Shown here: positions 991 to 37,277 of the stretch, one piece after another
Numbering within the stretch: position 1 is the stretch's first letter
Layout: every line of letters starts with the position of its first letter
Source: Dehalococcoidia bacterium
GTDB taxonomy: Bacteria > Chloroflexota > Dehalococcoidia > UBA6926
Assembly (NCBI GenBank): GCA_965243495.1
Contig: CBDEUZ010000007.1
Location: forward strand, 154,450 to 218,449
DNA length: 64,000 nucleotides
Reading direction: 5' to 3'
The notes under the pieces: generated by a model
What the model saw: only the letters and a program-made list of their open reading frames with translations
Told to the model about the DNA's origin: nothing
Databases searched by the model: none
Translations under genes and position numbers: made by a program

Positions 991-2226
991 CTACGCCGCC
1001 CCACCCTCACCCCTCACCGCCCCGATCCCACGACTCATGGCGGCTAAGGAAACAACAATGCTGACCACAACGATCAGAGCCGCAACCGTGTACGGCGTTC
1101 CGGTTAGCCCATCTGCCGCGTCCGCGATGCGGCCGCTCATAGCTGCTCCGGCAGCCACACCCAGTGAGTACGCGCCGTAGAAAATGCCGAACGCTCGGCC
1201 CCGATGGCGGGTTCCGCCTGAATCCGCCACCAGAGCGGCAGCGGCGGGAAACAGGAGCCCGAACCCCAGCCCGACAACACCCATACCCAGGAACACTGCC
1301 CACACGTCCTGGTTGGCTGCCATAAGCACAAGGCCCGCCCCGAAGAGCAACAGTCCTCCGCTAACGATGGCGAGTCGGTTGAAGCGGTCGCCAAAGACAC
1401 CCATCGCGCCCACCATCATAATCAGCGCCATCACAGCGTACAGGGTGAAAGCCGTCCCTGACGTCCTCGACGTCTCCCCCAACTCCTCAACGTGCAGCGG
1501 CAGATAGGCCGCAAGCGTGCCGATACCAATCGTCAGCGCAACAACAACCACAGACGCTACCGTCAGACCCACAGCGTCCAAACGGCTGCCTTCTGGTTCG
1601 TCAACAGGTTCGGCAATCTCTTGCGTGGTAGGTATCTCTCCCACCCCGCGCGACCCAATCACATAGATCACTGCCGTCGCCGCCATCAACCCTGCTGCAA
1701 TGAGAAACACTGGTTCATATCCAAACCTGTCGGCGAGGATTCCGGCAGACGCCGGACCAACCACAGCGGCGACCGCGATGCCTGCCGCGCTGCGCCCCAT
1801 TCTCCTGGCACGTTGGCCCTGCTGGGTGGAATCTCCAAGCATGGCGAATGCTCCGGGAGTCAGTACAGCGGCTGCGATTCCATGCAGTCCCCTGACAGCA
1901 AGAAGTACTTCCGCGCTGTTGGCCACGGCATATCCTGCAAGAGCGAGCGAAGTGACTACCAAGCCCGTCGTGATGGGGATTCTCCGACCAAACCGATCCA
2001 AAAAATATCCCGCCACGACATTGCCCGGAAGGTTCGTGATTGAGTACGCCGCGACGATGATGCCGACCATCGTGGCAGACGCGCCCAGATCATCGGCATA
2101 CGTCGGAACAAGCGGCAGTCCAATGAAGAAATCAAGGAATGCGACGAAGACAACAAGTGTCGCGAGTTGAGCGCTGCGCTGCCCGGTCATTCCCGGTGCG
2201 ACAGCAATGTGATTCGATGAAGACAT
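991..2226 (-). CDS. MFS transporter
   Basis: 12-TM hydrophobic profile with MFS signature (GYFLDRFGRR...). The likely start is MSSSNHIAV at 2226; the longest ORF extends to 2274. Confidence 0.8.
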   Translation of the reverse strand: MSSSNHIAVAPGMTGQRSAQLATLVVFVAFLDFFIGLPLVPTYADDLGASATMVGIIVAAYSITNLPGNVVAGYFLDRFGRRIPITTGLVVTSLALAGYAVANSAEVLLAVRGLHGIAAAVLTPGAFAMLGDSTQQGQRARRMGRSAAGIAVAAVVGPASAGILADRFGYEPVFLIAAGLMAATAVIYVIGSRGVGEIPTTQEIAEPVDEPEGSRLDAVGLTVASVVVVALTIGIGTLAAYLPLHVEELGETSRTSGTAFTLYAVMALIMMVGAMGVFGDRFNRLAIVSGGLLLFGAGLVLMAANQDVWAVFLGMGVVGLGFGLLFPAAAALVADSGGTRHRGRAFGIFYGAYSLGVAAGAAMSGRIADAADGLTGTPYTVAALIVVVSIVVSLAAMSRGIGAVRGEGGAA

Positions 2227-2339
2227 GGCGTATAGTCTGACCCTGCGCTGACGCGCGTTGAGGCGATGCCACACTAACGTATCACGGACGACGCTCGGGC
2301 TATCATCAATAAGAGTCCACAGAGAGATAGGGAGGCGTT

Positions 2340-2705
2340 GTGGCGGCGGTTCGATACATCGTCAGAGACGTAGAGCAGGCGGTGACGTTTTATACGTCTC
2401 TACTGGGTTTCTCGGTGGCCGAACAATACGGCCCCGCAATGGCAATCGTGACGCGCGGCGATCTGAGCCTTTGGCTGGCAGGGCCGCGCGCATCCGCCTC
2501 CCGCCCCATGCCGGACGGCCGCCAACCTGAGCCGGGCGGCTGGGCACGCATCGTCATCGAAACCGACGATATCGAGTCCACCACCGCCGCCCTCCATGAC
2601 GCGGGCGCGGCTTTCCGCAATGACATCATCAGCGGCCCGGGAGGTAGACAGGTCATCGTGGAAGACCCCTCCGGCAACCCAATCGAGATATTCCAACCCA
2701 GCTGA
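2340..2705 (+). CDS. VOC family protein (glyoxalase/bleomycin-resistance fold)
   Basis: 121-aa product MAAVRYIVRDVEQAVTFYTSLLGF... GTG start preceded by GGGAGG. Confidence 0.7.
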   Translation: MAAVRYIVRDVEQAVTFYTSLLGFSVAEQYGPAMAIVTRGDLSLWLAGPRASASRPMPDGRQPEPGGWARIVIETDDIESTTAALHDAGAAFRNDIISGPGGRQVIVEDPSGNPIEIFQPS

Positions 2706-3075
2706 GGCCGCCGTCATTCCCGCGAAAGCCCCCGTTCGCCCTGAGCCTGTCGAAGGGGGCTCCCGAACGGGGACCTATCATACCCATGTCATTCCGAGCG
2801 CAGTCGAGGAATCTAAAGTCTCAATTGCCCACCCAAGAAGGAACGCGGCACACCAAACACAGCGGCCACCCGCGCCGGACCGCGAACCGAGAGCCGTAAC
2901 GCAGTTACCCCGTTCGCCCTGAGCTTGTCGAAGGGTGAACCCCGCGCCACCCCTAATCCTTCAGTCGAAGCACTTCCCCACTGTCATTCTGAACGCAGCG
3001 CAGCGGAGTGAAGAATCCAAAGACTCATTGAGCTTCCCAACACGGCTTTAGATTCCTCGCTCCGCTCGGAATGAC
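2706..3075. repeat. Mosaic intergenic repeat array (modules A-partial, B, C, F, B, C, inverted C)
   Basis: Module B at 2730-2773 and 2911-2945. Module C at 2797-2835 and 2983-3025, with an inverted copy at 3040-3072. Module F (gagagccgtaacgcagttacccc) at about 2885-2910. Confidence 0.85.
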
Positions 3076-7754: not shown

Positions 7755-9308
7755 TCACATCATGCGGGCGTCATCAGGGCCCATGCCGGGCGGCGGGCTT
7801 TCCTCGTGTGGCCGGAGGTCCGGACGGACACGCATCCAGCGCGGCAACGGGGCGCGAACCGGACCTTCTTCGGTTGCCGTAGCAGCGGGCTTCCTCTCCG
7901 GTCGATGGCGCGGAGGCGGATACAGTTCTCGGATGTTAGACCAGATGGCACGGAGCTGCCCAACGTCCTCACGGGACGGCGGGATGCCGCCGTACCGCGC
8001 CCGCACGAACGAGTCCGTGAAGATGGCGATATCCTGCCCCACGAAGAGTCGACTGAGTTCCGGATGAAACTCCTCCGGCGTCTCCCACCCCTCGCGTGCC
8101 ACTCCGTGGTCGTCGGCCAGTGCTACCAGTCCCCGGTACGCGCCCAGCGCAACGGAAACTGGGTTGTTGGGGTCCAGATCAGTCGTAATGTCGGCATGCT
8201 TGGGTGAGCGTCGGAATCGGGCGGCCAGTGCTGACATCGCGGAAGAAAGGTCTTCAACAATCGTCGTCTCGCCCTGCAGCCGCTCGCGCTCTTCGCCCAT
8301 CTCTGCTTGCGAGCGCCGCCCCCGAAAACCGCTGAACAGCCGCCACAGGAACCACGCCACCCCAACGACGGCTGCCGTAACGGCCGCCCAGCCGAATATT
8401 CTGGACAGCCAATACAGCAGCCTGTTCTCTTCTTCGTCGCGTGTGAAGATCCGCTCAAAATCCGGCGCGGACGGCAGTTGAAGTTCGGGGCTCTCTCCCT
8501 CCGTGGCGAAGAGGCCTATCACCTGAAAGAACGCCCAGACGAACGCCTGGATGACTATCTCAAAGACCCAGCCGACAACAACCAACACGGGTATGAACAG
8601 CCGCCCTGCGAACCCGAATACCGTCGCTGCGACTCGCCCCAGTTCGCCCTCCGCCAGAACGGCCAGCAGAACACTGCCGATGAGGATGCCACCCACGGTA
8701 AGCGCCATCATGCGCGGCCAGTCTTTCAGTCCGGCGCTCTGCTCCGGGTCCATTGACGTGATATGGATCAACGCAAATGATGCGATACCCATCCCAAAGA
8801 AGAGGAACGTGGGAATCGGCGCGCCGGAATAGCTCTCGATTAAGACATCGATTACCACCCCCACCACCACAACGGCAACACCGATGCGGAAGGACTGCGC
8901 TAGTGAATTGACCCAAACGGATTCCTGTCCAAGATGTGTGCCGCGCCACCAGAAAACGCCGAGCATGATGCCGCCGACGATTGGGTGGCGGCCCTCCTGC
9001 CAGTCCTGCCAGAACCACAGCGGCCATGAAAAATCCCAGCCCACCTGCGGAAGCATGGCAATACCGAGATAGATGACGATTGCGCCGCCCCCGGCCACGA
9101 TACCCCGCGCCGCGGGCATGGTCGCGCCCGCGGGCACAATCCAGCGGGTGAGGATATACCCGGAAGCGGCGACGATCAAAGCCAGCCACACGGGCACCAG
9201 GCTCTCCCCCGCCCCGATCATCAGCAGAGCGAGAGCGCCGGCAATGGTGATCCACGCCACCTCCATCGTGAGGCGCGCCCCCTCCAATGCCAGCGGCGCC
9301 CATCTCAT
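7755..9308 (-). CDS. Polytopic membrane protein with C-terminal DUF4129-like domain (MoxR/DUF58-associated)
   Basis: Multiple TM helices, then a soluble C-terminal region (..ETPEEFHPELSRLF..DSFVRARYGG..). It sits as third gene of a MoxR-DUF58 operon; its start overlaps the DUF58 stop. Confidence 0.55.
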   Translation of the reverse strand: MRWAPLALEGARLTMEVAWITIAGALALLMIGAGESLVPVWLALIVAASGYILTRWIVPAGATMPAARGIVAGGGAIVIYLGIAMLPQVGWDFSWPLWFWQDWQEGRHPIVGGIMLGVFWWRGTHLGQESVWVNSLAQSFRIGVAVVVVGVVIDVLIESYSGAPIPTFLFFGMGIASFALIHITSMDPEQSAGLKDWPRMMALTVGGILIGSVLLAVLAEGELGRVAATVFGFAGRLFIPVLVVVGWVFEIVIQAFVWAFFQVIGLFATEGESPELQLPSAPDFERIFTRDEEENRLLYWLSRIFGWAAVTAAVVGVAWFLWRLFSGFRGRRSQAEMGEERERLQGETTIVEDLSSAMSALAARFRRSPKHADITTDLDPNNPVSVALGAYRGLVALADDHGVAREGWETPEEFHPELSRLFVGQDIAIFTDSFVRARYGGIPPSREDVGQLRAIWSNIRELYPPPRHRPERKPAATATEEGPVRAPLPRWMRVRPDLRPHEESPPPGMGPDDARMM

Positions 9309-10591
9309 TCCATCACCGCCTGTGCCGGAACGACGTGCTCAACACGACGAGTCACACCCGGTCGGAAGACCGATTCGTGCTCTAATTGCGCCATCTGATG
9401 ACCAATCTCATGCACGATGATGTCCGGATCAGACAGTAGCGGCGATGGTGTTTCCGATGTCCAGACCACACTCGGCTTAGCCCCTGCTCGCCGCAGGCTG
9501 TGCAGCGCATCGATGGTTTCCTCGTCCATCACGCTTGTGACCAAAACAACAGTCGCGCCAACCGGTAGTCGACGTGTCTGCTCCAGCAGGAACTGCCCCA
9601 TAGCTTGGCGTCCCAGCGGTGTCACGACCGCGAGGTTTTCAAGGACCGTCGCCAGCTGCTCCCGCCTGCGATTCGGCAGCACCCGGATTGGCTCATCTGT
9701 TAAAGGTGAAACGCTATTCGTCATCAGCCCGAATGACATCTTTTGCGCATACGCCCATTCCGCAATGGACGCCGCCGCCGTCACTCCCCGCTCCAACAGC
9801 AGGGGCGAATAACCCCATTGCCCCTCCGCTGCAGTTAGCGTCTGGGCGTTCAGGGCAAGAATCATGGTCTCCGAGACGGACGGAGAAAAGAGCCGCACAG
9901 TCAGCGCCTGCGAACGCGCCGTAGCTTTCCAATCCACGCGTCTCAGCGAGTCGCCCGCCTCATACGGCCGCAGACCCCGCAGTCTGCTCGGATCCTCGTG
10001 ATACGGCTGACCTCCGCGCTGCTCCCCGAACGGGCGCCTCGCGGGAATCCCCAGCGCAGGCAGCGGCAGCGTCTGCGGATAGACGATGACGTGATCCCAC
10101 TTCGGCTCAAGACGCTCAGAGAAGAAGAACCCGAACACGTCTCCGCTCGTCACGCTTGCCGGGCCGAATCGATACAGCCCACGCTTCCTGCACTCCATCG
10201 TGAATCGCCATGTGACCCGTTCATACCGCGCCAATGATGTTGAGCGCGTCGTGGTGTACGTCCCCTGCTCCACGCGAATCGTGCGCGGCTTGTCCGCCTC
10301 CTCAAGTCCGGATGGGAATTGATCCTCAAGCGTGATCCACGGCATGGGAATCGCCTTGCGGTTGGTCACCCGCAACTGAACGGTCACGTCATCACCGACA
10401 AACGCCCGCGTCTCGGAGAGCGACCGTTCAAACGTCACCCGCCCCAGTGAAACGCGATTCCACCCATACGCAACCAGGTACGTCAGGATAATCAGCGCGC
10501 CCAGTCCCACCAACAGCCCCTGCCCCGTCGCGAGGCCGATAATTAGCAGCAGGCCGAACGTGGCTACCCAGCCCCCGGTGAGCGTGAGCAT
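9305..10591 (-). CDS. DUF58 domain-containing protein (vWA-like, MoxR partner)
   Basis: N-terminal 2 TM, RRVDWKATARS motif typical of DUF58. Directly downstream of MoxR with a 3-nt gap. Confidence 0.75.
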   Translation of the reverse strand: MLTLTGGWVATFGLLLIIGLATGQGLLVGLGALIILTYLVAYGWNRVSLGRVTFERSLSETRAFVGDDVTVQLRVTNRKAIPMPWITLEDQFPSGLEEADKPRTIRVEQGTYTTTRSTSLARYERVTWRFTMECRKRGLYRFGPASVTSGDVFGFFFSERLEPKWDHVIVYPQTLPLPALGIPARRPFGEQRGGQPYHEDPSRLRGLRPYEAGDSLRRVDWKATARSQALTVRLFSPSVSETMILALNAQTLTAAEGQWGYSPLLLERGVTAAASIAEWAYAQKMSFGLMTNSVSPLTDEPIRVLPNRRREQLATVLENLAVVTPLGRQAMGQFLLEQTRRLPVGATVVLVTSVMDEETIDALHSLRRAGAKPSVVWTSETPSPLLSDPDIIVHEIGHQMAQLEHESVFRPGVTRRVEHVVPAQAVME

Positions 10592-10593
10592 CT

Positions 10594-11550
10594 CTAGCGG
10601 TCCGCGGCTACCTCTTCGGCCACGGCATCGTCCTCCGGCTGCCCGCTGATCGGCACGGGCACAGTGCGGAGAACGTCGTCCACTACATCAATGGACGTCA
10701 GACCGCGCAGCCGCGCCTGCGCATTCAGGATGACGCGATGGGTCAACACGTATGGCGCAAGACGCTTCACATCATCAGGTGTCACATAGTCCCGCCCCTG
10801 CTGCAGCGCCAATGCCTGCGAGGTGTGATGAAGCGCCAGCGACGCCCGCGGGCTCGCGCCGAGATCCAGTGACGGATGGTCGCGCGTCGAGTGAACGATA
10901 CCGATGATGTAGTCCTCCAGCGCCGGCTCCACCCGCGCGGTTGCAATCTGGTCCTGCATGGACAGAAGCTCCTGTGTCGAAAGAACCGGCCGCACCCGTT
11001 CAAGCGGGTCGTCTGCGTTGAACCGGTGAATCATCCGCGCCTCTTCCTCCGGCGAGGGCAAGCCGAGGCTTAGCCGCATCAGGAACCGATCCAACTGTGC
11101 TTCCGGCAGCGGGAATGTCCCCTCAAGTTCGATAGGATTCTGGGTGGCCATCACAAGGAACGGCGCGGGCAGCGGCAGGGTCTCCCCCTCAATAGTCACC
11201 TGCCCTTCCTGCATCGCCTCCAGCAGCGCCGACTGCGTCCGCGGCGTCGCGCGATTCACCTCATCGGCCAGCATGACCTGCGAGAATATCGGCCCGTTCC
11301 GTAGCTCGAAATCCCCGGACCGCTGATTGTAGTAGTTGATGCCCGTGATGTCCGCGGGCATCAGGTCCGGCGTGAACTGTACGCGGCTGAACGTGCATCC
11401 CAATGAGGCGGCCAACGCCTTGGCCAGCGTCGTCTTCCCGCTCCCCGGCACATCCTCAAAGAGCAGGTGGCCACGGCACAACAACGCTGTGATGGCCAAC
11501 TCGATGACGTTATCCTTGCCGACGATGACCGAGGCCACGCTCTCTGCCAC
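10594..11550 (-). CDS. MoxR family AAA+ ATPase
   Basis: GKDNVIELAITALLCRGHLLFEDVPGSGKTTLAKALA Walker A; whole-length MoxR signature. 318 aa. Confidence 0.9.
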   Translation of the reverse strand: MAESVASVIVGKDNVIELAITALLCRGHLLFEDVPGSGKTTLAKALAASLGCTFSRVQFTPDLMPADITGINYYNQRSGDFELRNGPIFSQVMLADEVNRATPRTQSALLEAMQEGQVTIEGETLPLPAPFLVMATQNPIELEGTFPLPEAQLDRFLMRLSLGLPSPEEEARMIHRFNADDPLERVRPVLSTQELLSMQDQIATARVEPALEDYIIGIVHSTRDHPSLDLGASPRASLALHHTSQALALQQGRDYVTPDDVKRLAPYVLTHRVILNAQARLRGLTSIDVVDDVLRTVPVPISGQPEDDAVAEEVAADR

Positions 11551-12442: not shown

Positions 12443-12466
12443 CAGCCGTAATCCCGACTAAACAAG

Positions 12467-12498
12467 GCGGGGCGGGTCAATGACCCGCCCCGCCTTTG
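12467..12498 (+). terminator. Rho-independent terminator after the dienelactone hydrolase gene
   Basis: Perfect GC-rich palindrome GGCGGGGCGGGTCA / TGACCCGCCCCGCC followed by TTTG. Confidence 0.6.
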
Positions 12499-12850
12499 TC
12501 ATTCTGAGCATGTCGAAGAATCCCCGTTCGCCCTGAGCCTGTCGAAGGGGGCTCCTGAACGGGGAATCACTTATCCGTCATTCCGCGCCCCCATTCGTCA
12601 TTCCCGCGAAAGCGGGAATCCAGTGCCGCCCATAGGGCGGCCTCCCCTCTCCCTCGGGGAGAGGGCTAGGGTGAGGGCCCTGTCATTCCAGGCGCCCCTC
12701 CGTCATTCCGAGCGCAGCCGAGGAATCTAAAAACTCATTTGGCAAACATGCCGGAACGCGGTGCCAAACTTGGATGCCATTCAACCCTAATCGCGAACCT
12801 TGGCTGTAGGCACTGCCTACCCCACTCCAGCCACCCTTCCCTATAATGTC
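12497..12850. repeat. Mosaic repeat array (C-variant, B, A, D, C, E)
   Basis: Module C variant at 12497-12525, B at 12524-12570, A at 12596-12650, D (ctctccctcggggagagggctagggtgaggg) at 12650-12690, C at 12700-12740, E (..cttggctgtaggcactgcctaccc) at 12745-12840. Confidence 0.85.
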
Positions 12851-12908
12851 CCTTAACGTGCCCGACTAACACGCAGCAAACCTTGTCGGGATAAGCCGGA
12901 GAATCGCA

Positions 12909-15900
12909 ATGGCGAGAACCCCCCGTTCTGGCTTGATTATTCTTTTGATTGCCGCGGCAATCATTCTTATCGTCTTCGCTTGCGAAAGACCAAGCCCCAC
13001 CCCTACCCCGCCGCCTCCCTCCCCTACACCGACGCCCGAGCCGACACCCGAACCAACCGCCATAGAGCGCCTTGCCTGGTTCGATGCCCGACCTGACACC
13101 GCCCATTGGATCGCGTGGAACGCTCTCCGTCGGATGGCCATCGATGACGAACCGCTCACCCAGCAGATCGCCTCTCTCGACTGGGTGGTTGACGGCATAA
13201 CTGCTGAAGAAGCCGGTGCCCTCGATGATGTGTCGTGGCTCCTTCGGGAGAATCCTGCCATCGCCGACACAGCCCTGAACTTGCCGTGGATGGCGACGGA
13301 CAGCGTCATAAGCGCGGAAGACCGGCGCGCCCTCCGTGCAATTCGCGCCGCAGCGTCCACCGACGAGGACCTTGGCGCAACCCTCGCCGGGTATGAGTGG
13401 CTGACGAACGGACTCACGCAGGATGAGGCAGAGGCGCTGGAAACCATTGGAGAAATCGTCACTCCCGGCTTCACCACCCAAACCGCAACTGGCATCGGCG
13501 CAATCCGGTTAGACCGCTCCGGTACCGCAACACCGCCGTCGGTCTCCCCACGAACGCTTCAGTTCGCCACGTCTGTCTCTCAATTTCCCTGGATGCAAGA
13601 CGACGTCACCTCGCTTGAGACCGTGTTCATTGCCAACCTCAATGGACTAGTTGAAACGGCTGGCAGCATGCACGCAGGTGCAGCGGACACCATCGTGTCC
13701 TATGACTGGATACAGGACGGGATAGAGCTGAATGAGTCGCGTTCACCGCTTCTCTACGAACCGCTCTTCAGGGCGGCAGGTGTGGAAGATACCGACATCC
13801 TGCCGATCATGCTCGAATATGAGTGGATTGCGGATGGACTGGGTTCTAACGAATCACGCGCTATCAGCGGGCTCACACCCCTCCTCAACGCCAGTTCTTC
13901 GGATGACGTAGACGTTATGCGAACCATGGTGAGCTACCCATGGCTCACGGATTCAATCGAAGGCCCTGAATATACTTTGCTAGATGAATTCGCTTACCTC
14001 CTGCGCTTGGAAGAGTCTGCAGGCGCGACATATCGCCAGACCGTACTCGGCTATGACTGGCTCCTAGACGACGTCACCCCAACGGAAATCGCATTCATTC
14101 ATGAACTAACCGAACTCACCCGGACGGCCGATGATTTCCACGCAGAGTCTCTTGACATCGTCGCGTCATACGACTGGGCAGTAGACGGCATTGACGAGCC
14201 AGAGGTTGCTTTCTTGCGGCGCCTCACCCTCCTGTTTGAACACGCAGGAACCGAAGACGCAGTAGCCCTGCAAACCGTGCTTGGATACGAGTGGATCACG
14301 GATGGCGTGATTGTGTCCGAGTTAGACTTTGTGAGGAAAATTGCCTACCTCTTTAACGCAAGTTCTCAGGAAGATGCTCAGGCAATAACCATTATCTCTG
14401 AGTACCCGTGGCTGGCAGATTCTGTGGAGGGCTTTTATGAGAGGGACGCGTTGCGAGCGTTCGATGCTCTGTTGCGACCACAGGGAAGCCAGTACGTAGT
14501 CCCCCAGGAAACGATTCTCGCTTTCGATTGGGTATCCGACGGCATGAGCGTCTATGGGGACGTCTATGAGCATATTGCTCTGGCTGATCTTGTGGAAACG
14601 ATACTTCTCCTTGCCTCGGAACGACCGGAACTCATGGTTTCTTTTGTGGAATCCGAATGGCTCTTGGACAGTCTCTCATTTGAGGAACGTGATGGCCTAT
14701 CCAGAGTCAGAGACATAGTTCCTGACATAAAACTGTTGAACCGATTGGTAGACGCCCTTCCTTACACTGTCAACGATGAGCTGACGAACATATCGGTTGG
14801 AGACGAATGGTTGCAGGGTCAATTCTCCGACTCATTCCTTGAGGAACTTCACTCGACCCAACAGATACTGGCGCAACGCATTTCTCTTATCGATCGAGTC
14901 AGCAACGCCTTGGATGTCGCCCCCGAATTTGCTTGGTTGCAAGACGGACTTTCGCCTATGGAAATGGAATGGCTGCTGGCTTTCAATGAATTGTTTGATG
15001 TAATCGGCCAACCGGAAGCTCTTAACTTCGCTTCCCTGCCATGGTTTCAGGACAACATTGATGCCTTTGACATGAGTGTTATGAACCTCTTGATGTGGAG
15101 AAAACTTATCTTGAGGCCGGAAATTGCCGACTTGAATCTGTCTGCTGATGGTATCTCTGAAAATGATGGTTTCTACTTGATGGCTCTCGGCGATGCCCTG
15201 AACCGTTCCGAGCACCAATATCAGGATCTCCTCAACCAACATCACATCGCCAGCCGAACGCTCACCATGCCCTTGGCGGGAGACATTGACGTTACAGTGG
15301 TTCGTCACACACCTTTTCCAAACAACGACCCTACCCTTGATCTGACAGAGGACATCGCACTCCAGCTAGAAGAGTTCATGGGAGTACCCTTCCCTTTGGA
15401 CAACATCCTGATACTCATACTGGAAGCCAGTGTCCGCAACGGAGAGAGACCGATGATCGGCGTCGCCTATGCCATCTGGGGTCATCTCGTCATGGTTCCC
15501 CCTCGCCATAATCCCGGCTTCCACCTTGCCGTCTTCCATGAGGTTAGTCACTTGTACTGGGGCGGCCACACCGGAGCTCCACCCTGGTGGACGGAGGGGG
15601 CCGCAGGCTTTCTGCCGGACATCGCGCGAGACGCCCTGGGGCATGAAACCCTGGAAGAGCGACGCAAGCAATTGCTCTGGGACACGAGCCGTGAATGTTG
15701 GAATCAGGGCATCAGAACTGTTTCCACTTACTACCATTTACAGAGAACTCAACCCCACGTTGCGCAAGATCGCGGCATCTGCATATACGCCTTGGGAGAG
15801 ATTTTCCTGGTGGAGATGTACCTCCTGCTCGGCCATGACGCCACCTCCACCGCCATGCGACAGCTCTACGTCGATGCCCGTGATTCCGGGTGGCTTGACC

Positions 15901-16031
15901 CCATCACCGATCAGAAAATCTATGATGCCTTTCGGGCCAACACCCCGGATGACAAGGTGGAAGAGTTCCGCAAACTGTTCCTCCGCCTCCACGGCGGCGC
16001 CAACGTCAACCTCTCCGAATCAACCACCTAG
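12909..16031 (+). CDS. Large lipoprotein: signal peptide/lipobox, PT-rich linker, about 16 tandem ~40-aa repeats, C-terminal M1-like (gluzincin) zinc-metallopeptidase domain
   Basis: N-terminus MARTPRSGLIILLIAAAIILIVFAC has lipobox VFAC, followed by PSPTPTPPPPSPTPTPEPTPEPT. The repeat motif x-Y-[DEP]-W-[ILV]-x-D-[GSD]-[ILV]-x3-E recurs about 16 times between aa 95-710. The C-terminus has AVFHEVSHLYWGGHTGAPPWWTEGAAGF, i.e. HExxH(x)nWWxEG as in M1 aminopeptidases. GC is visibly lower than flanking DNA over about 13.9-15.4 kb. Confidence 0.7.
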   Translation: MARTPRSGLIILLIAAAIILIVFACERPSPTPTPPPPSPTPTPEPTPEPTAIERLAWFDARPDTAHWIAWNALRRMAIDDEPLTQQIASLDWVVDGITAEEAGALDDVSWLLRENPAIADTALNLPWMATDSVISAEDRRALRAIRAAASTDEDLGATLAGYEWLTNGLTQDEAEALETIGEIVTPGFTTQTATGIGAIRLDRSGTATPPSVSPRTLQFATSVSQFPWMQDDVTSLETVFIANLNGLVETAGSMHAGAADTIVSYDWIQDGIELNESRSPLLYEPLFRAAGVEDTDILPIMLEYEWIADGLGSNESRAISGLTPLLNASSSDDVDVMRTMVSYPWLTDSIEGPEYTLLDEFAYLLRLEESAGATYRQTVLGYDWLLDDVTPTEIAFIHELTELTRTADDFHAESLDIVASYDWAVDGIDEPEVAFLRRLTLLFEHAGTEDAVALQTVLGYEWITDGVIVSELDFVRKIAYLFNASSQEDAQAITIISEYPWLADSVEGFYERDALRAFDALLRPQGSQYVVPQETILAFDWVSDGMSVYGDVYEHIALADLVETILLLASERPELMVSFVESEWLLDSLSFEERDGLSRVRDIVPDIKLLNRLVDALPYTVNDELTNISVGDEWLQGQFSDSFLEELHSTQQILAQRISLIDRVSNALDVAPEFAWLQDGLSPMEMEWLLAFNELFDVIGQPEALNFASLPWFQDNIDAFDMSVMNLLMWRKLILRPEIADLNLSADGISENDGFYLMALGDALNRSEHQYQDLLNQHHIASRTLTMPLAGDIDVTVVRHTPFPNNDPTLDLTEDIALQLEEFMGVPFPLDNILILILEASVRNGERPMIGVAYAIWGHLVMVPPRHNPGFHLAVFHEVSHLYWGGHTGAPPWWTEGAAGFLPDIARDALGHETLEERRKQLLWDTSRECWNQGIRTVSTYYHLQRTQPHVAQDRGICIYALGEIFLVEMYLLLGHDATSTAMRQLYVDARDSGWLDPITDQKIYDAFRANTPDDKVEEFRKLFLRLHGGANVNLSESTT

Positions 16032-16035
16032 CCCC

Positions 16036-17538
16036 ATGCTGCCATTCCGACCGCCTCCGTCCGTCATTCTGCTGGCACTGTGCATCCAGTTGGCTCTTCT
16101 TGCAGGGTGCGAGTCAGATGACGCTCCAAGCTCAGGCCGTGATCCGGCGAGCCAGTTGATCCCCACACCAACCCCCCATGCGGATGTCCTGCCCTACTTG
16201 CCCTACACGGTTCCCCCCTCACTGGAAGAGCAGGTCGGCTCAGCAGTGATCGTGCGCGCCACTCTTGTGTCGGTGACACCGGATGCTGAGACGATGCCCA
16301 GCGGCGAGGGTGTCGCCCCCACCTACCGTCCGATGCAGACACTCCGATTCAGGGTTCACGAGTACCTGAGAGGCAGCGGTCCAACAGAAGCCATCGTGGT
16401 GGTGCGTGGCGACCACACGTACCTGACGGAAGCAGAGGCGCGTCGTGCGGCCAGCCGGCGCAACAGCACATGGGACGAACGGGAAGCGGTGCTGTTCTTG
16501 GATCCACCATTCGGAGCTGCGGGCGGCGCCTCCGGTATGTCGCAGTCTACGAGGGAACTCACATTCTTTCTGAACAATCACACGGACACACCGTTTGATT
16601 ACTCAGTGGACACGCTGAGCCGCGTTTGGCTGCCTGCAAGGGACGCCCCGAGGTCCAGGGGCGCTGCTGGTGAATCATCGACGCCTGGGCCGTACATCAC
16701 CGACGGCGCGGCGTCCCAACCGCCGACCGTCTCACTGGCCGACATCAAGGCCGCTATCGCCAACCTGGAGGCGGAGATCGAGCGAGGAGCGGGCATAGAG
16801 GGTTACTACGACTGCATGAGCTACAGGACTCTCTACAAGCGGACTCGCCGCGCCGCGCCGTGGGTGCCGATCCGGGAGTCAACGGCGTTGGTGTCCGGTT
16901 CAGCCGCCGGGATCAAGTTCTACACGCATGACTACACTTACAGGGATCCACAGTACGATCGGTTCTGGCTCTCCGGCCCCGACGGGAACCTTTTCACGGC
17001 CCCCATCGACGACGATGACACCGACCCTTCCAACGGCTATCACTTCGCGCTTGCCGCCGCACGTCCGTTGCCTGCGGGCAGCTATCAAATCCATCACCAC
17101 CTTCAGATCTCCGAGTACATCCCCTGCAACTTCAAGCCAACCGATGCTTACGACGTCTTTACGGTGACTGTGACATCGTCTGCTGGCACCCTGCATGAAG
17201 CCTTCTTTGATCCGGTGACCATCGGCACGACGGTCGGCGCGGACGCTTCCAACGGCGTTATTGATCCGGATGAGTTCACCGTCGGCAGCGATGACTATGA
17301 GATCGAGAGCATCGTGTGGGATAACGATGACGATGAGGTCGTCCTGACACTGGATGACCATGTCTCGTTGTCCGGGAAGACGCTGGACTTCATCGAGTTG
17401 GACGGCTCCATCGACACCTCCCTGGACGTTTCGGACGCCACCGTTAACAAGACAGCGACCACGTGGACATGGAGCCTCACAAGCGCGCCATGGGAAGACG
17501 GCGACACCTTGATGCTCCGCATCCGCGACACGGAGTGA
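16036..17538 (+). CDS. Hypothetical lipoprotein (translationally coupled to the upstream repeat-peptidase gene)
   Basis: ATG is 5 nt after the upstream stop. MLPFRPPPSVILLALCIQLALLAGC has lipobox LLAGC, followed by a PT-rich stretch. No recognisable catalytic motif. The ORF track version from 15469 is an artefactual upstream extension overlapping the previous gene. Confidence 0.6.
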   Translation: MLPFRPPPSVILLALCIQLALLAGCESDDAPSSGRDPASQLIPTPTPHADVLPYLPYTVPPSLEEQVGSAVIVRATLVSVTPDAETMPSGEGVAPTYRPMQTLRFRVHEYLRGSGPTEAIVVVRGDHTYLTEAEARRAASRRNSTWDEREAVLFLDPPFGAAGGASGMSQSTRELTFFLNNHTDTPFDYSVDTLSRVWLPARDAPRSRGAAGESSTPGPYITDGAASQPPTVSLADIKAAIANLEAEIERGAGIEGYYDCMSYRTLYKRTRRAAPWVPIRESTALVSGSAAGIKFYTHDYTYRDPQYDRFWLSGPDGNLFTAPIDDDDTDPSNGYHFALAAARPLPAGSYQIHHHLQISEYIPCNFKPTDAYDVFTVTVTSSAGTLHEAFFDPVTIGTTVGADASNGVIDPDEFTVGSDDYEIESIVWDNDDDEVVLTLDDHVSLSGKTLDFIELDGSIDTSLDVSDATVNKTATTWTWSLTSAPWEDGDTLMLRIRDTE

Positions 17539-23079: not shown

Positions 23080-23345
23080 CCATTTGAAAAGTCCCCGTTC
23101 GCCCTGAGCGTAGTCGAAGGGGGCTCTCGAACGGGGAGCCGCTCCCACTCTTACTTCGTCATTCCCGCGAAAGCGGGAATCCAGTACGGCGCGCAGCGCC
23201 GTCTAACTTGTCATTCCGAGCGTAGCCGAGGAATCTAAAGCCTCAATTGACCGCCAAAGCCGGAACGCGGCGGACAAACGCCACAAACCAACCTCACCTG
23301 AACGCGAACTTTGGCCGTAGGCACTGCCTACCCCACCCCCACTAA
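23080..23345. repeat. Mosaic repeat array (B, A, C, E)
   Basis: B at 23095-23140, A at 23155-23205, C at 23208-23250, E (..cgcgaactttggccgtaggcactgcctaccc) at 23255-23335. Confidence 0.85.
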
Positions 23346-31484: not shown

Positions 31485-32095
31485 CTCTCCCCCATCGTCA
31501 TTCCCGCGAAAGCATGCCCCGTACTCTGATACGGGGCGGCAATGGATTCTCGCCCGCAGGACGGCCTCTTCCGTCATTCCGAGCGCAGTCGAGAAATCCA
31601 AAGGCTCAATAGACCGCCAAAGCGGGAACGCGGTGTGCAACATACACAGGTCATTCAGAGTTCGACCGCGAACCTTGGCTGTAGGCACTGCCTACCCGAG
31701 AGCCGTAGCGCAGCTACCCGTTCGCCCTGAGCCTGTCGAAGGGGGCTCCCGAACGGGGATCTAGCCCCCCTCGTCATTCCCGCTAAAGCATGTCCCGTAC
31801 TTGATACGGGGCGGGAATCCAGTGCGGTCCGTAGGGCAGCCTCTTCTGTCATTCCGAGCGCAGTCGAGGAATCCAAAGACTCATATGGCAAGCATGCTGG
31901 AACGCGGGTGCCAGACTGCACTGGCCAGACGACCCGGAACGCGAACTAAAAGCCGTAGCGCAGCTACCCGTTCGCCCTGAGCCTGTCGAAGGGGGATCCC
32001 GAACGGGGGTCTAGCCCCTCTTCGTCATTCCCGCGAAAGCGGGAATCCAGTGCGGCGCGCAGCGCCGCCCAACCTCACCCCTTTGCTATCATCAC
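31485..32095. repeat. Mosaic repeat array, about 610 nt, the longest in the window (A-variants with nested hairpin, C, E, F, B, A ...)
   Basis: A-variant at 31497-31545 and 31785-31850 carries a second hairpin (atg[c/t]cccgtact[c]tgatacgggg) inserted in the A loop. C at 31562-31600 and 31845-31885, E at 31620-31700, B at 31720-31765 and 31965-32010, A at 32025-32080. Confidence 0.85.
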
Positions 32096-32099
32096 CAAT

Positions 32100-33371
32100 A
32101 TGAAAAAGACGGTCAGCGATATCGACGTGTCCGGCGCGCGATGCCTCGTGCGCGTCGATTTCAACGTTCCGTTCGAACCCGGCACAACCACAATCTCCGA
32201 CGACTCCCGCATCCGCGCCGCCCTACCAACCATCAACTACCTTCGTGAGCGGGGCGCGCGCGTCATCCTCGCAACCCATGTGGGCAGACCAAAGGGCATC
32301 GACGACGGCTTGCGCGTAGCGCCCATGGCCGCACGGCTCTCCGAACTCCTCTCATCGCCCGTCACTGTCGCGCCCGACTCCATCGGCGAGGAAACCGAAA
32401 AGCTCGCCGCCGCGCTCGGCCCCGGTGATGTCCTCTTCCTTGAAAACACGAGGTTCCACCCCGAAGAGGAGAAGAACGCTCCTGATCACTCAGCCGCCCT
32501 CGCCCGTCTTGCGGACTTCTATGTGAACGATGCCTTTGGGTCCGCCCACCGCGCCCACGCCTCCACGGAGGGCGTCGCCCATCTCCTGCCCGCCGTCGCG
32601 GGGTTCCTCCTTGATAAGGAGATCCGCATGTTGGGCGGCATCCTTGAATCGCCCCGCCGTCCGCTGGCAACGCTCATGGGCGGCGCAAAGGTCGGCGACA
32701 AGATGGCCGTCATGGAGCGACTCATCGAGAGCTCGGACATGCTCATCGTCGGCGGTGGCATGGCCGCCGCGTTCCTGGAAGCCCGTGGAATGCGAACCGG
32801 TAAGAGCCTGCTCGAAGCGGACGGCCCGCAGATGGCAGGGCGAATCGAAAGCGCCGCAAGGGCCCGAGGCATCCAACTGCTGATTCCGACGGACGTGATC
32901 GTGGCAACCGAACTCTCCGCCGATGCCCCCGTGTCCGCCGTAAGCAGCGACGCCATCCCTGCAGATGGAATGCTCCTGGACATCGGCCCCGAGACGCGCG
33001 ATACCTACACGCGCGCCTTGCGACTCTGCCAGACAGTACTTTGGAACGGCCCGATGGGTGTATTCGAGTACGACCAATTCGCCGGAGGCACACGCGCTAT
33101 CGCCGAATGCCTCGCCCAACACGCCGGCGCTCCCACCTCCCTTCGTCATTCCCGCGAAAGCGGGAATCCAGTGCGGCGCGCAGCGCCGCCACCTTCTCAC
33201 GCCCCACACGGCGCAACCGTCGTCGTTGGCGGCGGCTCGACGGCTGAGGCCGTCGACGCCCTCGGATATGCCGACGCCATGACCCATGTGTCCACCGGCG
33301 GCGGCGCGGCCCTCGAATTCCTTGAAGGCCGTGTCCTCCCCGGCATCGCCGCCCTCCAGGACATGGACTGA
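32100..33371 (+). CDS. pgk: phosphoglycerate kinase carrying an in-frame repeat-element insertion
   Basis: Full-length PGK (..VRVDFNVP.., ..VWNGPMGVFE.., ..GGGSTAEAV..STGGGAALEFLEG..). Between ..ECLAQHAGA and TVVVGGG, 27 extra residues (PTSLRHSRESGNPVRRAAPPPSHAPHG) are encoded by an exact copy of repeat module A at 33143-33189. Confidence 0.9.
   Translation: MKKTVSDIDVSGARCLVRVDFNVPFEPGTTTISDDSRIRAALPTINYLRERGARVILATHVGRPKGIDDGLRVAPMAARLSELLSSPVTVAPDSIGEETEKLAAALGPGDVLFLENTRFHPEEEKNAPDHSAALARLADFYVNDAFGSAHRAHASTEGVAHLLPAVAGFLLDKEIRMLGGILESPRRPLATLMGGAKVGDKMAVMERLIESSDMLIVGGGMAAAFLEARGMRTGKSLLEADGPQMAGRIESAARARGIQLLIPTDVIVATELSADAPVSAVSSDAIPADGMLLDIGPETRDTYTRALRLCQTVLWNGPMGVFEYDQFAGGTRAIAECLAQHAGAPTSLRHSRESGNPVRRAAPPPSHAPHGATVVVGGGSTAEAVDALGYADAMTHVSTGGGAALEFLEGRVLPGIAALQDMD
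33143..33189 (+). repeat. Module A copy inside the pgk coding frame
   Basis: cgtcattcccgcgaaagcgggaatccagtgcggcgcgcagcgccgcc is identical to the intergenic copy at 32035-32080. Total inserted length keeps the frame open. Confidence 0.9.
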
Positions 33372-34140
33372 ACTTTTCTCTGCCATTCCAAGCGCAACTA
33401 AAGGGTCCCCGTTCGGGAGCCCCCTCGTCATTCCCGCGAAAGCGGGAATCCAGTGCGGCGCGTAGCGCCGCCATTAATCCCCTCTCCCTGAGGGGGAGGG
33501 TTAGGGTGGGGGTGACTCCCCCGTCATTCCGAGCGCAGCCGAGGAATCCAAAGACTCCACAGACCGCCAAAACCGGAACGCGGCACACCAAACCCAACGA
33601 CGACCCTCCCCGGCATCGCCGCCCTCCAGGACGCGGACTAGTCCCCGTTCGCCCTGAGCCTGTCGAAGGGGGCTCCCGAACGGGGAACCAACATCCCCTC
33701 CCCCTCGTCATTCCCGCGAAAGCGGGAATCCAGTGCGGCGCGCTGCGCCGCCATTAATCCCCTCTCCCTCAGGGAGAGGGTTAGGGTGAGGGGGGCTGTA
33801 ATTCCGAGCGCCCTTACTGTCATTCCGAGCGCAGTCGAGGAATCCAAAGCCTCAATAGACCGCCAGAGCAGGAACGCGCATCCGAACCCAACGGCCGCCC
33901 GCACCGGAACGTGAACTTTGGCCGTAGCGCAGCTACCGAGAGCCGTAACGCAGTTACCCCGTTCGCCCTGAGCTTGTCGAAGGGGGCTCCCGAACGGGGA
34001 CCTAGCTCCCCTTCGTCATTCCGGCGCAGGCCGGAATCCACCCCGTGGCCCGTAGGGCCACAACACTCTCCTGCAAACCTTTGTGCTATTCTCAAATTCG
34101 GTGTACAGCGGCATCAAGAGTACAAAGGAATAATTTGAGG
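33372..34140. repeat. Mosaic repeat array (A, D, C, E, B, A, D, C, E, F, B, A-variant)
   Basis: Two successive composite blocks A-D-C-E at about 33420-33600 and 33705-33900, then F+B at 33911-34005 and an A-variant (cgtcattccggcgcaggccggaatcc) at 34015-34045. The D copies contain (G3N3)3G3 tracts. Confidence 0.85.
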
Positions 34141-36884: not shown

Positions 36885-37277
36885 CCCTGCCCACCCTGAG
36901 CCTGTCGAAAGGCCTTCCACTTCCCGTTCGCCCTGAGCCTGTCGAAGGGGGCTCCCGAACGGGTACCTAGCCCCCTCGTCATTCCCGCGAAAGCGGGAAT
37001 CCAGTGCGGCGCGCAGCGCCGCCTCTCATGTCATTCCGAGCACAGCCGAGGAATCTAAAGACTCCACAGACCGCCAAAGCCGGAACGCGACACACCAGCC
37101 TCACGCACAAATCGACGCTGATCGCGAGCTATGGTTGTAGGCACTGCCTACCCGCCCAAAGCCGGAACGCGGCACACCAAACCCACGAACCGTTCTCGCC
37201 GGAACGTGAACTTTGGCCGTAGCGCAGCTACCCGAGAGCCGTAACGCAGTTACCCCCGCTATACTGTCCACACGCAT
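36885..37277. repeat. Mosaic repeat array (B-partial, B, A, C, E, E, F)
   Basis: B fragments at 36895-36965, A at 36975-37020, C at 37025-37065, E at 37065-37200, F (gaactttggccgtagcgcagctacccgagagccgtaacgcagttacccc) at 37198-37255. The F copy is a direct repeat of 33905-33961 on the other side of the island. Confidence 0.85.

Follow-up and report, generated by a model that had tools for sequence, protein, structure and literature searches.

What does a bacterium make from a gene that joins a lipoprotein-type N-terminus, a long run of degenerate repeats and a zinc-peptidase signature, and whose product matches no model at all in Pfam or NCBIfam? The question is raised by gene 1 (12909..16031, + strand), which we analysed, together with the adjoining gene 2, within a 64,000-nucleotide stretch of DNA (the window) from contig CBDEUZ010000007.1 of a Dehalococcoidia bacterium. 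Gene 1 encodes a predicted lipoprotein of 1040 amino acids (aa) in which a repeat array is followed by an M1-like zincin domain. At its core is a minimal and divergent gluzincin of the M1-like type, joined to a repeat that belongs to no named family, and the approximately 900 clusters (at 50% identity) that combine an intact metallopeptidase centre with this new repeat are unannotated and blank in the domain libraries. We think it probable that the gene 1 protein is an active surface metallopeptidase with a repeat arm and, jointly with this, that gene 2 is a separate, mobile or expendable neighbour outside the gene 1 machine. The Dehalococcoidia and their relatives among the Chloroflexota are heterotrophs that abound in ocean, sediment and sponge habitats; most are uncultured, and their attack on extracellular protein is poorly known.

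In the mechanism that we favor, the signal peptide, the lipobox Cys and a Pro/Thr linker would hold the protein on the outer side of the cell membrane, and approximately 16 helical 39-residue repeats would form an elongated alpha-solenoid that carries the catalytic domain off the membrane, serving both as a stalk and as a probable substrate-binding surface. The C-terminal 300 residues would constitute a thermolysin-like gluzincin domain, closest to the M1 aminopeptidases, in which His877, His881 and Glu896 would serve as zinc ligands, Glu878 as the base that activates water and Tyr960 as the residue that stabilises the transition state, as in M1. With an open cleft, and with the GxMEN loop and domain I (the clamps for a free N-terminus) missing, the enzyme would act as an endopeptidase or oligopeptidase. 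Such a mechanism stays within expectations for clan MA peptidases.

The catalytic domain

The predicted active site lies within aa 740-1040 (15126..16028; this and all other features of gene 1 are on the + strand), a region that profile comparisons, an AlphaFold2 (AF2) model and Foldseek identify as a gluzincin catalytic domain closest to the catalytic domain of M1. From the family alignments, HEVSH at aa 877-881 (15537..15551) is predicted to supply two zinc ligands, His877 and His881, and the catalytic base, Glu878; Glu896 in WWTEG (15594..15596), with a spacer of 14 residues from HExxH, is the predicted third zinc ligand; and Tyr960 in C-I-Y-A-L-G (15786..15788) is the predicted transition-state-stabilising Tyr. 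When the domain was aligned with 21 relatives, some of them only 18-30% identical (alignment A1), His877, Glu878, His881, Trp893, Glu896, Ala899, Cys930 and Cys958 were invariant and Tyr960 nearly so. Conservation also pairs Cys930 (15696..15698) with Cys958 (15780-15782), and the two may form a disulphide, which would be in keeping with an extracytoplasmic location.

Searched against PDB, the A1 profile found ERAP1 (E 5e-7), IRAP (7e-7), ERAP2 and tricorn factor F3 (1e-5 each) and puromycin-sensitive aminopeptidase (5e-5), with HEVSH and Glu896 aligned to the M1 HExxH and to the WLNEG Glu of ERAP1 and IRAP. In M1 enzymes HExxH and Glu bind zinc, Glu activates water and a Tyr stabilises the tetrahedral intermediate. 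A sub-profile aligned the family's C-x-Y-x-x-G, which contains Tyr960, with S-Y-F-K-G of IRAP, whose Tyr we take to be the M1 catalytic tyrosine, and the 64 residues from Glu896 to Tyr960 fall within the M1-like distance of approximately 60-65. The AF2 model built on A1 is confident (predicted local distance difference test score, pLDDT, 91.4; predicted template-modelling score, pTM, 0.87) and consists of a five-stranded sheet followed by helices. Foldseek matched this domain model to M61 and M1 enzymes in PDB with E-values of 5e-7 to 1e-4 and query-based template-modelling scores (TMq) of 0.5-0.6. With HExxH, a downstream Glu ligand and a thermolysin-like catalytic fold, the domain has the features of clan MA(E), the gluzincins. 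The preliminary description of this DNA, made from its letters alone, had picked out HEVSH and WWTEG in the C-terminal domain and had read them as a zincin that lacked the remaining standard parts of an M1 enzyme. Both motifs are there, the zincin reading now has profile matches to M1 domains, the alignment of the catalytic Tyr and a confidently modelled gluzincin fold behind it, so that the case of an HExxH region without such a fold did not arise, and the M1 parts are indeed missing, as set out below.

How close is this domain to its best-known relatives? With the M1 aminopeptidases (ERAP1, IRAP, aminopeptidase N, LTA4 hydrolase and tricorn-interacting factor F3; PF01433) it shares HExxH, the Glu ligand in a downstream W-x-x-E-G and the catalytic Tyr in Y-x-x-G at an equal spacing from the Glu, although its identity to them is 10-16%. 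The M1 enzymes, however, have GxMEN, an N-terminal beta-sandwich and a C-terminal domain of the ERAP1_C type, whereas the gene 1 protein is without all three and carries instead a predicted lipid anchor and an N-terminal array of a novel repeat. The loop that aligns with GAMEN of ERAP1 reads NGERPM (aGerps in the profile) and shows gaps or variation across the wider family. In the AF2 model of the full-length protein the catalytic domain is preceded by helical repeat only, with no counterpart of the beta-sandwich domain I, and the protein stops approximately 13 residues past the last helix of the catalytic domain, leaving no C-terminal helical domain IV. PF01433 itself did not match the gene 1 protein or its domain at E<=1, and therefore not at the gathering score that defines M1, while weak matches were seen in 6 of 22 members of the domain family (best 4.9e-5); NCBIfam returned nothing meaningful for the 22 domain relatives. 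Because GxMEN, both flanking domains and the 18-residue spacer of M1 are lacking, the domain is a gluzincin that is nearest to M1 yet fails several of its defining features.

In Deinococcus radiodurans, a two-domain M1 metallopeptidase (PDB 6a8z), described in its PDB entry titles as binding both substrates and free amino acids, still has the M1 N-terminal domain where the gene 1 protein has repeats. The M61 glycyl aminopeptidases (PDB 7xyo, 8j9d) have a similar gluzincin domain and gave the top Foldseek match (E 4.6e-7, TMq 0.57). The preliminary description could place the protein in no named peptidase family, and this holds for Pfam and NCBIfam, neither of which has a model for the repeat or one that scores above threshold on the domain.

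M1 enzymes hold the free N-terminus of their substrates by means of the N-terminal beta domain and GxMEN. Since both are missing here, we infer that the enzyme most likely makes internal cuts in peptides or proteins rather than trimming N-termini. Alternatively, the protein could be a classical M1-type aminopeptidase that has kept N-terminal trimming and whose active site is closed by the repeat array in place of the absent M1 domains. M1 enzymes cap the active site with the helical-repeat domain IV, for which, on general grounds, a helical array could stand in; in addition, the best structural and sequence neighbours of the domain are all aminopeptidases, and the M1 catalytic Tyr is conserved. 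The array, however, lies on the N-terminal and not the C-terminal side of the catalytic domain, the residues and the domain that would hold an N-terminus are neither present nor, in the case of GxMEN, conserved in the family, and PF01433 stays below threshold. We consider an aminopeptidase of this kind unlikely.

The repeat array, the predicted anchor and the family

The arm of the putative enzyme is an array of 39-residue alpha-helical repeats at aa 79-734 (13143..15110), recognised by its motif, by a hidden Markov model (HMM) and in the AF2 model. It comprises 16 units, each marked by a Trp (at aa 92, 127, 164, 228, 267, 306, 345, 384, 423, 462, 501, 541, 584, 634, 676 and 712), which agrees well with the 16 or so copies of an approximately 40-residue repeat counted in the preliminary description; one additional, degenerate unit without the Trp occurs at about 745-760, where the C-terminal module begins. 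Unit spacing defines a strictly periodic core at aa 214-608 (13548-14732), and eight successive units are spaced exactly 39 residues apart. The consensus is x12-Y-x-W-x2-D-G-x4-E-x3-L. The motif [YFLS][DEPA]W[ILVMAF]x[DNQ][GSDN] occurs 14 times in the gene 1 protein as against 0.03 in 2000 shuffles, and an HMM made from the units of gene 1 detects 15 of them. In an alignment of 35 diverse units (A4) the Trp alone was invariant and the Asp nearly so, with Tyr, Gly, Glu and Leu as the majority residues at fixed positions. An EF-hand-like calcium loop was considered for D-G-[ILV]-x3-E and dropped, as in our own reading the motif is one position out of register and has a hydrophobic residue at position 3.

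Every unit is helical in the full-length AlphaFold model (pLDDT 71.9, pTM 0.45). The modelled unit has a helix of approximately 10 residues up to the Tyr, a one-turn helix at W-x-x-D and a helix of 14-16 residues after D-G-x-x-x-E, and the array as a whole is predicted to be all-alpha and solenoid-like, the shape that the preliminary description had raised as a possibility. The closest known systems for the array are alpha-solenoid repeat proteins (ARM/HEAT-like proteins and designed helical repeats such as DHR and FD15). Pfam repeat families (HEAT, ARM, TPR, Sel1, PPR and others) matched neither the gene 1 protein nor 46 relatives in their repeats, LRR and Ank being found only in separate regions of a few. 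Among the PDB matches listed, the repeats resembled designed helical repeat proteins only, with no natural repeat protein. When the full-length model was compared with PDB by Foldseek, nothing was returned for the repeats and the C-terminus matched only M1 and M61; the single sequence of gene 1 had found only low-complexity matches to its Pro/Thr (PT) linker there. To our knowledge, the signature Y-x-W-x2-D-G-x4-E cannot be assigned to any named repeat.

The array is ancient rather than a recent expansion, because the units of gene 1 are on average only 21% identical to one another and no tandem repeat can be detected in the array at the DNA level (within gene 1, the scan found such repeats only in the PT linker). 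Recent duplication as the source of the array was rejected on the same low identity between units. Two homologues are informative on how the protein has changed since. The copy at the syntenic locus of another genome (L009) is 79% identical to the gene 1 protein in the N-terminal region, 56% in the repeats and 65% in the zincin domain, while the proteins that neighbour it are 87-90% identical to their counterparts in the window. P0002, from a different locus of yet another genome (L003), is 78% identical overall, with 91% in the N-terminal region, 64% in the repeats and 95% in the zincin domain; it differs in length by 41 residues, and the alignment breaks inside the array (query 350/382), which is compatible with the loss of approximately one 39-residue unit. 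Since identity is lowest in the repeats in both comparisons and P0002 differs by about one unit, the repeats evolve faster than the other parts, with changes of whole units. This is the pattern expected for an exposed surface that determines interactions. The mosaic of similarities among gene 1, P0002 and the L009 copy suggests exchange or replacement among paralogues.

Within the array, at aa 194-200 (13488..13508), sequence and homologue alignment reveal the motif TGIGAIR, which 26 of the 45 closer homologues carry without change and which is present in just 2 of 146 proteins of the wider family. The segment is unstructured in the AlphaFold model (pLDDT<50). TGIGAIR is thus a conserved linear motif that could mark a site of processing or act as a peptide for docking or autoinhibition.

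Do the repeat and the zincin domain belong together? Our initial homologue search recovered 45 relatives, all of them unannotated and several distant ones with LRR domains; all 45 have repeats, with 1-14 units detectable, and the complete ones have the zincin domain as well. A search from the catalytic side with the A1 profile added only 28 further relatives, short and unnamed. We also searched with the repeat alone, using a 39-position profile against 1.84 billion cluster representatives (clusters at 50% identity), and retrieved 936 proteins at E<=1e-3, 430 of them at E<=1e-10. Among the 150 best matches to this profile there were 146 newly retrieved proteins, and in a local HMM search 119 of these also carried the zincin domain, those without it being mostly short and probably fragments. 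Because the two modules are coupled to this extent, repeat and zincin domain form one widespread family for which the current libraries (Pfam, NCBIfam) are blank. The number of units per protein ranges from 1 to 19 over all relatives compared and from 3 to 17 in the local search of the 146; the library search counted as many as 24 matched stretches in a single protein, and in a few members the repeats flank the catalytic domain on both sides. Source names, where recovered, were 'hypothetical protein' only, from Chloroflexi/Chloroflexota metagenome-assembled genomes (MAGs) or unnamed JGI records, and a literature search by accession gave no match. A profile scan with one genome per species located 13 gene 1 loci, all in Dehalococcoidia/Chloroflexota MAGs, no genome having more than two paralogues. 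For annotation, the family offers two new profile models; for biochemistry, it offers as a target an M1-like core stripped of its exopeptidase determinants.

The repeat-only search also allowed us to follow the active site through the family, in 100 complete zincin domains that were recovered without reference to that site. The first His was conserved in 93% of these, the catalytic Glu, the second His and the third-ligand Glu in 94% each, the Trp in 99%, the Cys pair in 100% and 97%, and the Tyr in 88%. We read this as the signature of a family selected for catalysis, in which a minority of copies have degenerated. In nine members (P0174, P0194, P0214, P0224, P0253, P0261, P0269, P0273 and P0044) the zincin domain is kept and HExxH lost, P0044 having REVGH in one of its two zincin copies; these are probably pseudo-peptidases. 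Among 46 long members, additional modules were found in the form of LRR (4), PPC bacterial pre-peptidase (4), M60 peptidase (1) and ankyrin repeats (1), modules that are typical of secreted proteases or binders.

The lost active sites and the LRR and ankyrin modules of relatives could also be taken to mean that the gene 1 product is a non-catalytic surface adhesin or 'eukaryotic-like' repeat protein whose zincin domain is a mere binding module. At least one homologue (L019, APA_bin_32), moreover, comes from a MAG named like the bins of Aplysina aerophoba sponge symbionts, the 'APA_bin' naming series referring to that sponge (PMC11706023). The gene 1 protein, however, retains all of the catalytic residues, their conservation at 88-94% across the family implies selection for catalysis, and some relatives carry PPC pre-peptidase domains; we regard a purely adhesive protein as quite unlikely.

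Several observations weigh against the surface metallopeptidase that we favor. The gene 1 protein scores below every Pfam threshold. Its third-ligand Glu follows HExxH after 14 residues as compared to the 18 of M1 (HExxH-x18-E), and HMMER places a gap there. The nearest structural neighbours, being aminopeptidases without exception, leave room for exopeptidase activity, and degenerate active sites in approximately 6% of family members indicate that non-catalytic roles exist in the family. Finally, the full-length model is only moderately confident and defines the shape of the arm, and its placement with respect to the active site, no more than loosely. We nevertheless favor an active surface peptidase, and we would go one step further only tentatively. 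In this more ambitious proposal, which we rate as possible rather than probable, the W-x2-D-G repeat of 39 residues and the truncated M1-like domain would define a new family of cell-surface endopeptidases, traceable only to Chloroflexota, in which a rapidly diversifying arm of variable unit number selects the protein substrate. If this were true, the arm would do the job of M1 domains I and IV. Candidate substrates would be host matrix or particle proteins, in sponge-associated or marine Dehalococcoidia.

Placement of the peptidase on the cell surface depends on its N-terminus. By sequence pattern, 12909..12983 encodes a signal peptide with the lipobox IVFA-C, ending at Cys25; the N-terminus, MARTPRSGLIILLIAAAIILIVFAC, combines positive charge, a hydrophobic core and the lipobox-type Cys. 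It is followed at aa 26-50 (12984..13058) by a Pro/Thr-rich linker of 25 residues, ERPSPTPTPPPPSPTPTPEPTPEPT, in which there are 21-nt and 12-nt DNA repeats. The lipobox pattern [LVI][ASTVI..][GAS]C is matched by gene 1 and also by gene 2 (LLAG-C25), in both cases as a pattern match only. A Cys near position 25 and a PT linker are common to most full-length homologues of gene 1. The lipobox signal peptide and Pro/Thr linker reported in the preliminary description are thus both present, and the protein would be lipid-anchored at Cys25 and, we infer, displayed on the outward side of the membrane.

Gene 2 and the GC dip

Two tempting misreadings of this locus, one concerning an operon partner and the other a foreign origin, can be corrected. 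Gene 2 (16036..17538, + strand) encodes a 500-aa predicted lipoprotein with LLAG-C25 and a short PT stretch, a member of a separate large family with no known domain. As the preliminary description had it, this is a closely set lipoprotein gene with a PT linker; its ATG at 16036 leaves a gap of 4 nt after the gene 1 stop. With so short a gap, and with no terminator-like site found between the two genes in our scan, co-transcription in the window is plausible. A rival reading is a two-gene surface substrate-capture system in which gene 1 and the downstream lipoprotein act jointly and are inherited together. The close spacing and the lipobox and PT linker on both proteins would suit such a system, and gene 2 homologues do lie within 8 kb of a gene 1 homologue at 2 of the 13 genome loci (L012 and L020), although on the opposite strand.

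The remaining comparisons speak against it. No gene 2 homologue is present within 8 kb at the other 11 loci, nor at the loci that we read directly: in three genomes the gene 1 homologue stands between a CoA-transferase gene and a GBBH-like gene without a gene 2 relative, and in a fourth it stands in another context again, also without gene 2. The most telling case is L009 (MAG S16_98), which is collinear with the window through genes for polyprenyl synthetase, TsaC/Sua5, GuaA and PurD at 82-87% DNA identity and has gene 1 in the same place at 71-78% identity. There the gene 1 stop lies within six bases of the 3' end of the polyprenyl synthetase gene, and the 1.5 kb of gene 2 are absent. The presence or absence of gene 2 (16036-17538 in the window as against 2956-2962 in L009) falls exactly between the stop codons of convergent genes, and the alignment of the junctions showed no obvious repeats bordering gene 2. 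Gene 2 is a clean insertion or deletion difference between the two genomes.

Seen from the side of gene 2, the picture is similar. Its family has at least 599 relatives, with several per genome and five on one 3.46-Mb contig, and is far larger than that of gene 1, so that because of its size and copy number an occasional gene 1 neighbour is expected by chance. The closest relatives of gene 2 adjoin another gene 2 paralogue (in tandem, L006) or a serine recombinase (L007), and no gene 1 relative was found beside the gene 2 relatives that we examined. The gene 2 core matches no Pfam model (34 relatives checked), gene 2 matches nothing in NCBIfam, and the profile found no relative in PDB; its relatives often carry C-terminal cadherin or fibronectin-III domains, and the invariants of the family (homologues P0046-P0165) include two Cys and H-E-x-x-F-D-P at aa 387-393. 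The two-gene system hinted at in the preliminary description is therefore very improbable and is already largely refuted; a comparison for pairs with the same layout turned up no conserved cassette, only the two opposite-strand cases. The separate, mobile or expendable neighbour with which we began fits these comparisons better, and co-transcription, if present, would be an accident of insertion and not the mark of a functional unit.

The second misreading concerns the base composition of gene 1. GC content falls to 0.48-0.53 at 13.8-15.3 kb, in the middle of the gene, as compared to approximately 0.62 in the flanks and 0.60 in the whole window, and GC at third codon positions (GC3) is 0.54-0.60 in the dip as against 0.78-0.82 in housekeeping neighbours. 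The dip noted in the preliminary description is thus real; the foreign origin that was drawn from it is not borne out. Besides the two dips, a recently imported gene could account for the far greater divergence of gene 1 than of the flanking genes from their syntenic counterparts. The same mid-gene dip, however, is present in the homologues of four other Dehalococcoidia genomes, where GC is 0.61-0.62 in the flanks and 0.56-0.57 in the gene and reaches its minimum of 0.49-0.54 in the repeat zone. Moreover, the same position is held by gene 1 in the related genome (L009), and 13 of 13 genome matches are Dehalococcoidia or Chloroflexota. Because the dip is shared and the gene is syntenic in a relative, low GC characterises the gene family, and most strongly its repeats, and offers no evidence for recent import, which we consider extremely improbable. 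The lineage may have acquired gene 1 in the distant past.

Surroundings of the locus

Upstream of gene 1, at 7755-11550 on the - strand, is a tight cluster of three genes for a MoxR-type AAA ATPase (AAA_3), a DUF58 protein and a DUF4129 membrane protein. This trio is often seen and poorly understood. A gene for a dienelactone hydrolase (DLH) lies closer, and the spacer between it and gene 1 (12443..12908, + strand) was read directly and by octamer counts. A GC-rich hairpin followed by a T-rich stretch is visible by eye right after the DLH stop, although the terminator scan did not list it. No sigma-70-like site was found by the scan on the + strand of this spacer, and the counts of both the sigma-70 and the terminator scan were at or below shuffle expectation; Rfam and transfer RNA scans gave nothing near the gene 1 locus.

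The spacer also contains five copies of the octamer GTCATTCY, which occurs 35 times in the window as compared to 4.1 expected, 32 times on the + strand, and is clustered in intergenic stretches (12498-12709, 2186-3075, 23158-23217, 31497-32031, 33145-34022 and 36978-37037). Two small palindromes that recur, CGTCATTCCCGCGAAAGCGGGAATCCAGTGCGGCGCG..CGCCGCC and CGTCATTCCGAGCGCAGCCGAGGAATC, have the octamer at their head and look like dispersed repeats of the repetitive extragenic palindrome (REP) or miniature inverted-repeat transposable element (MITE) type.

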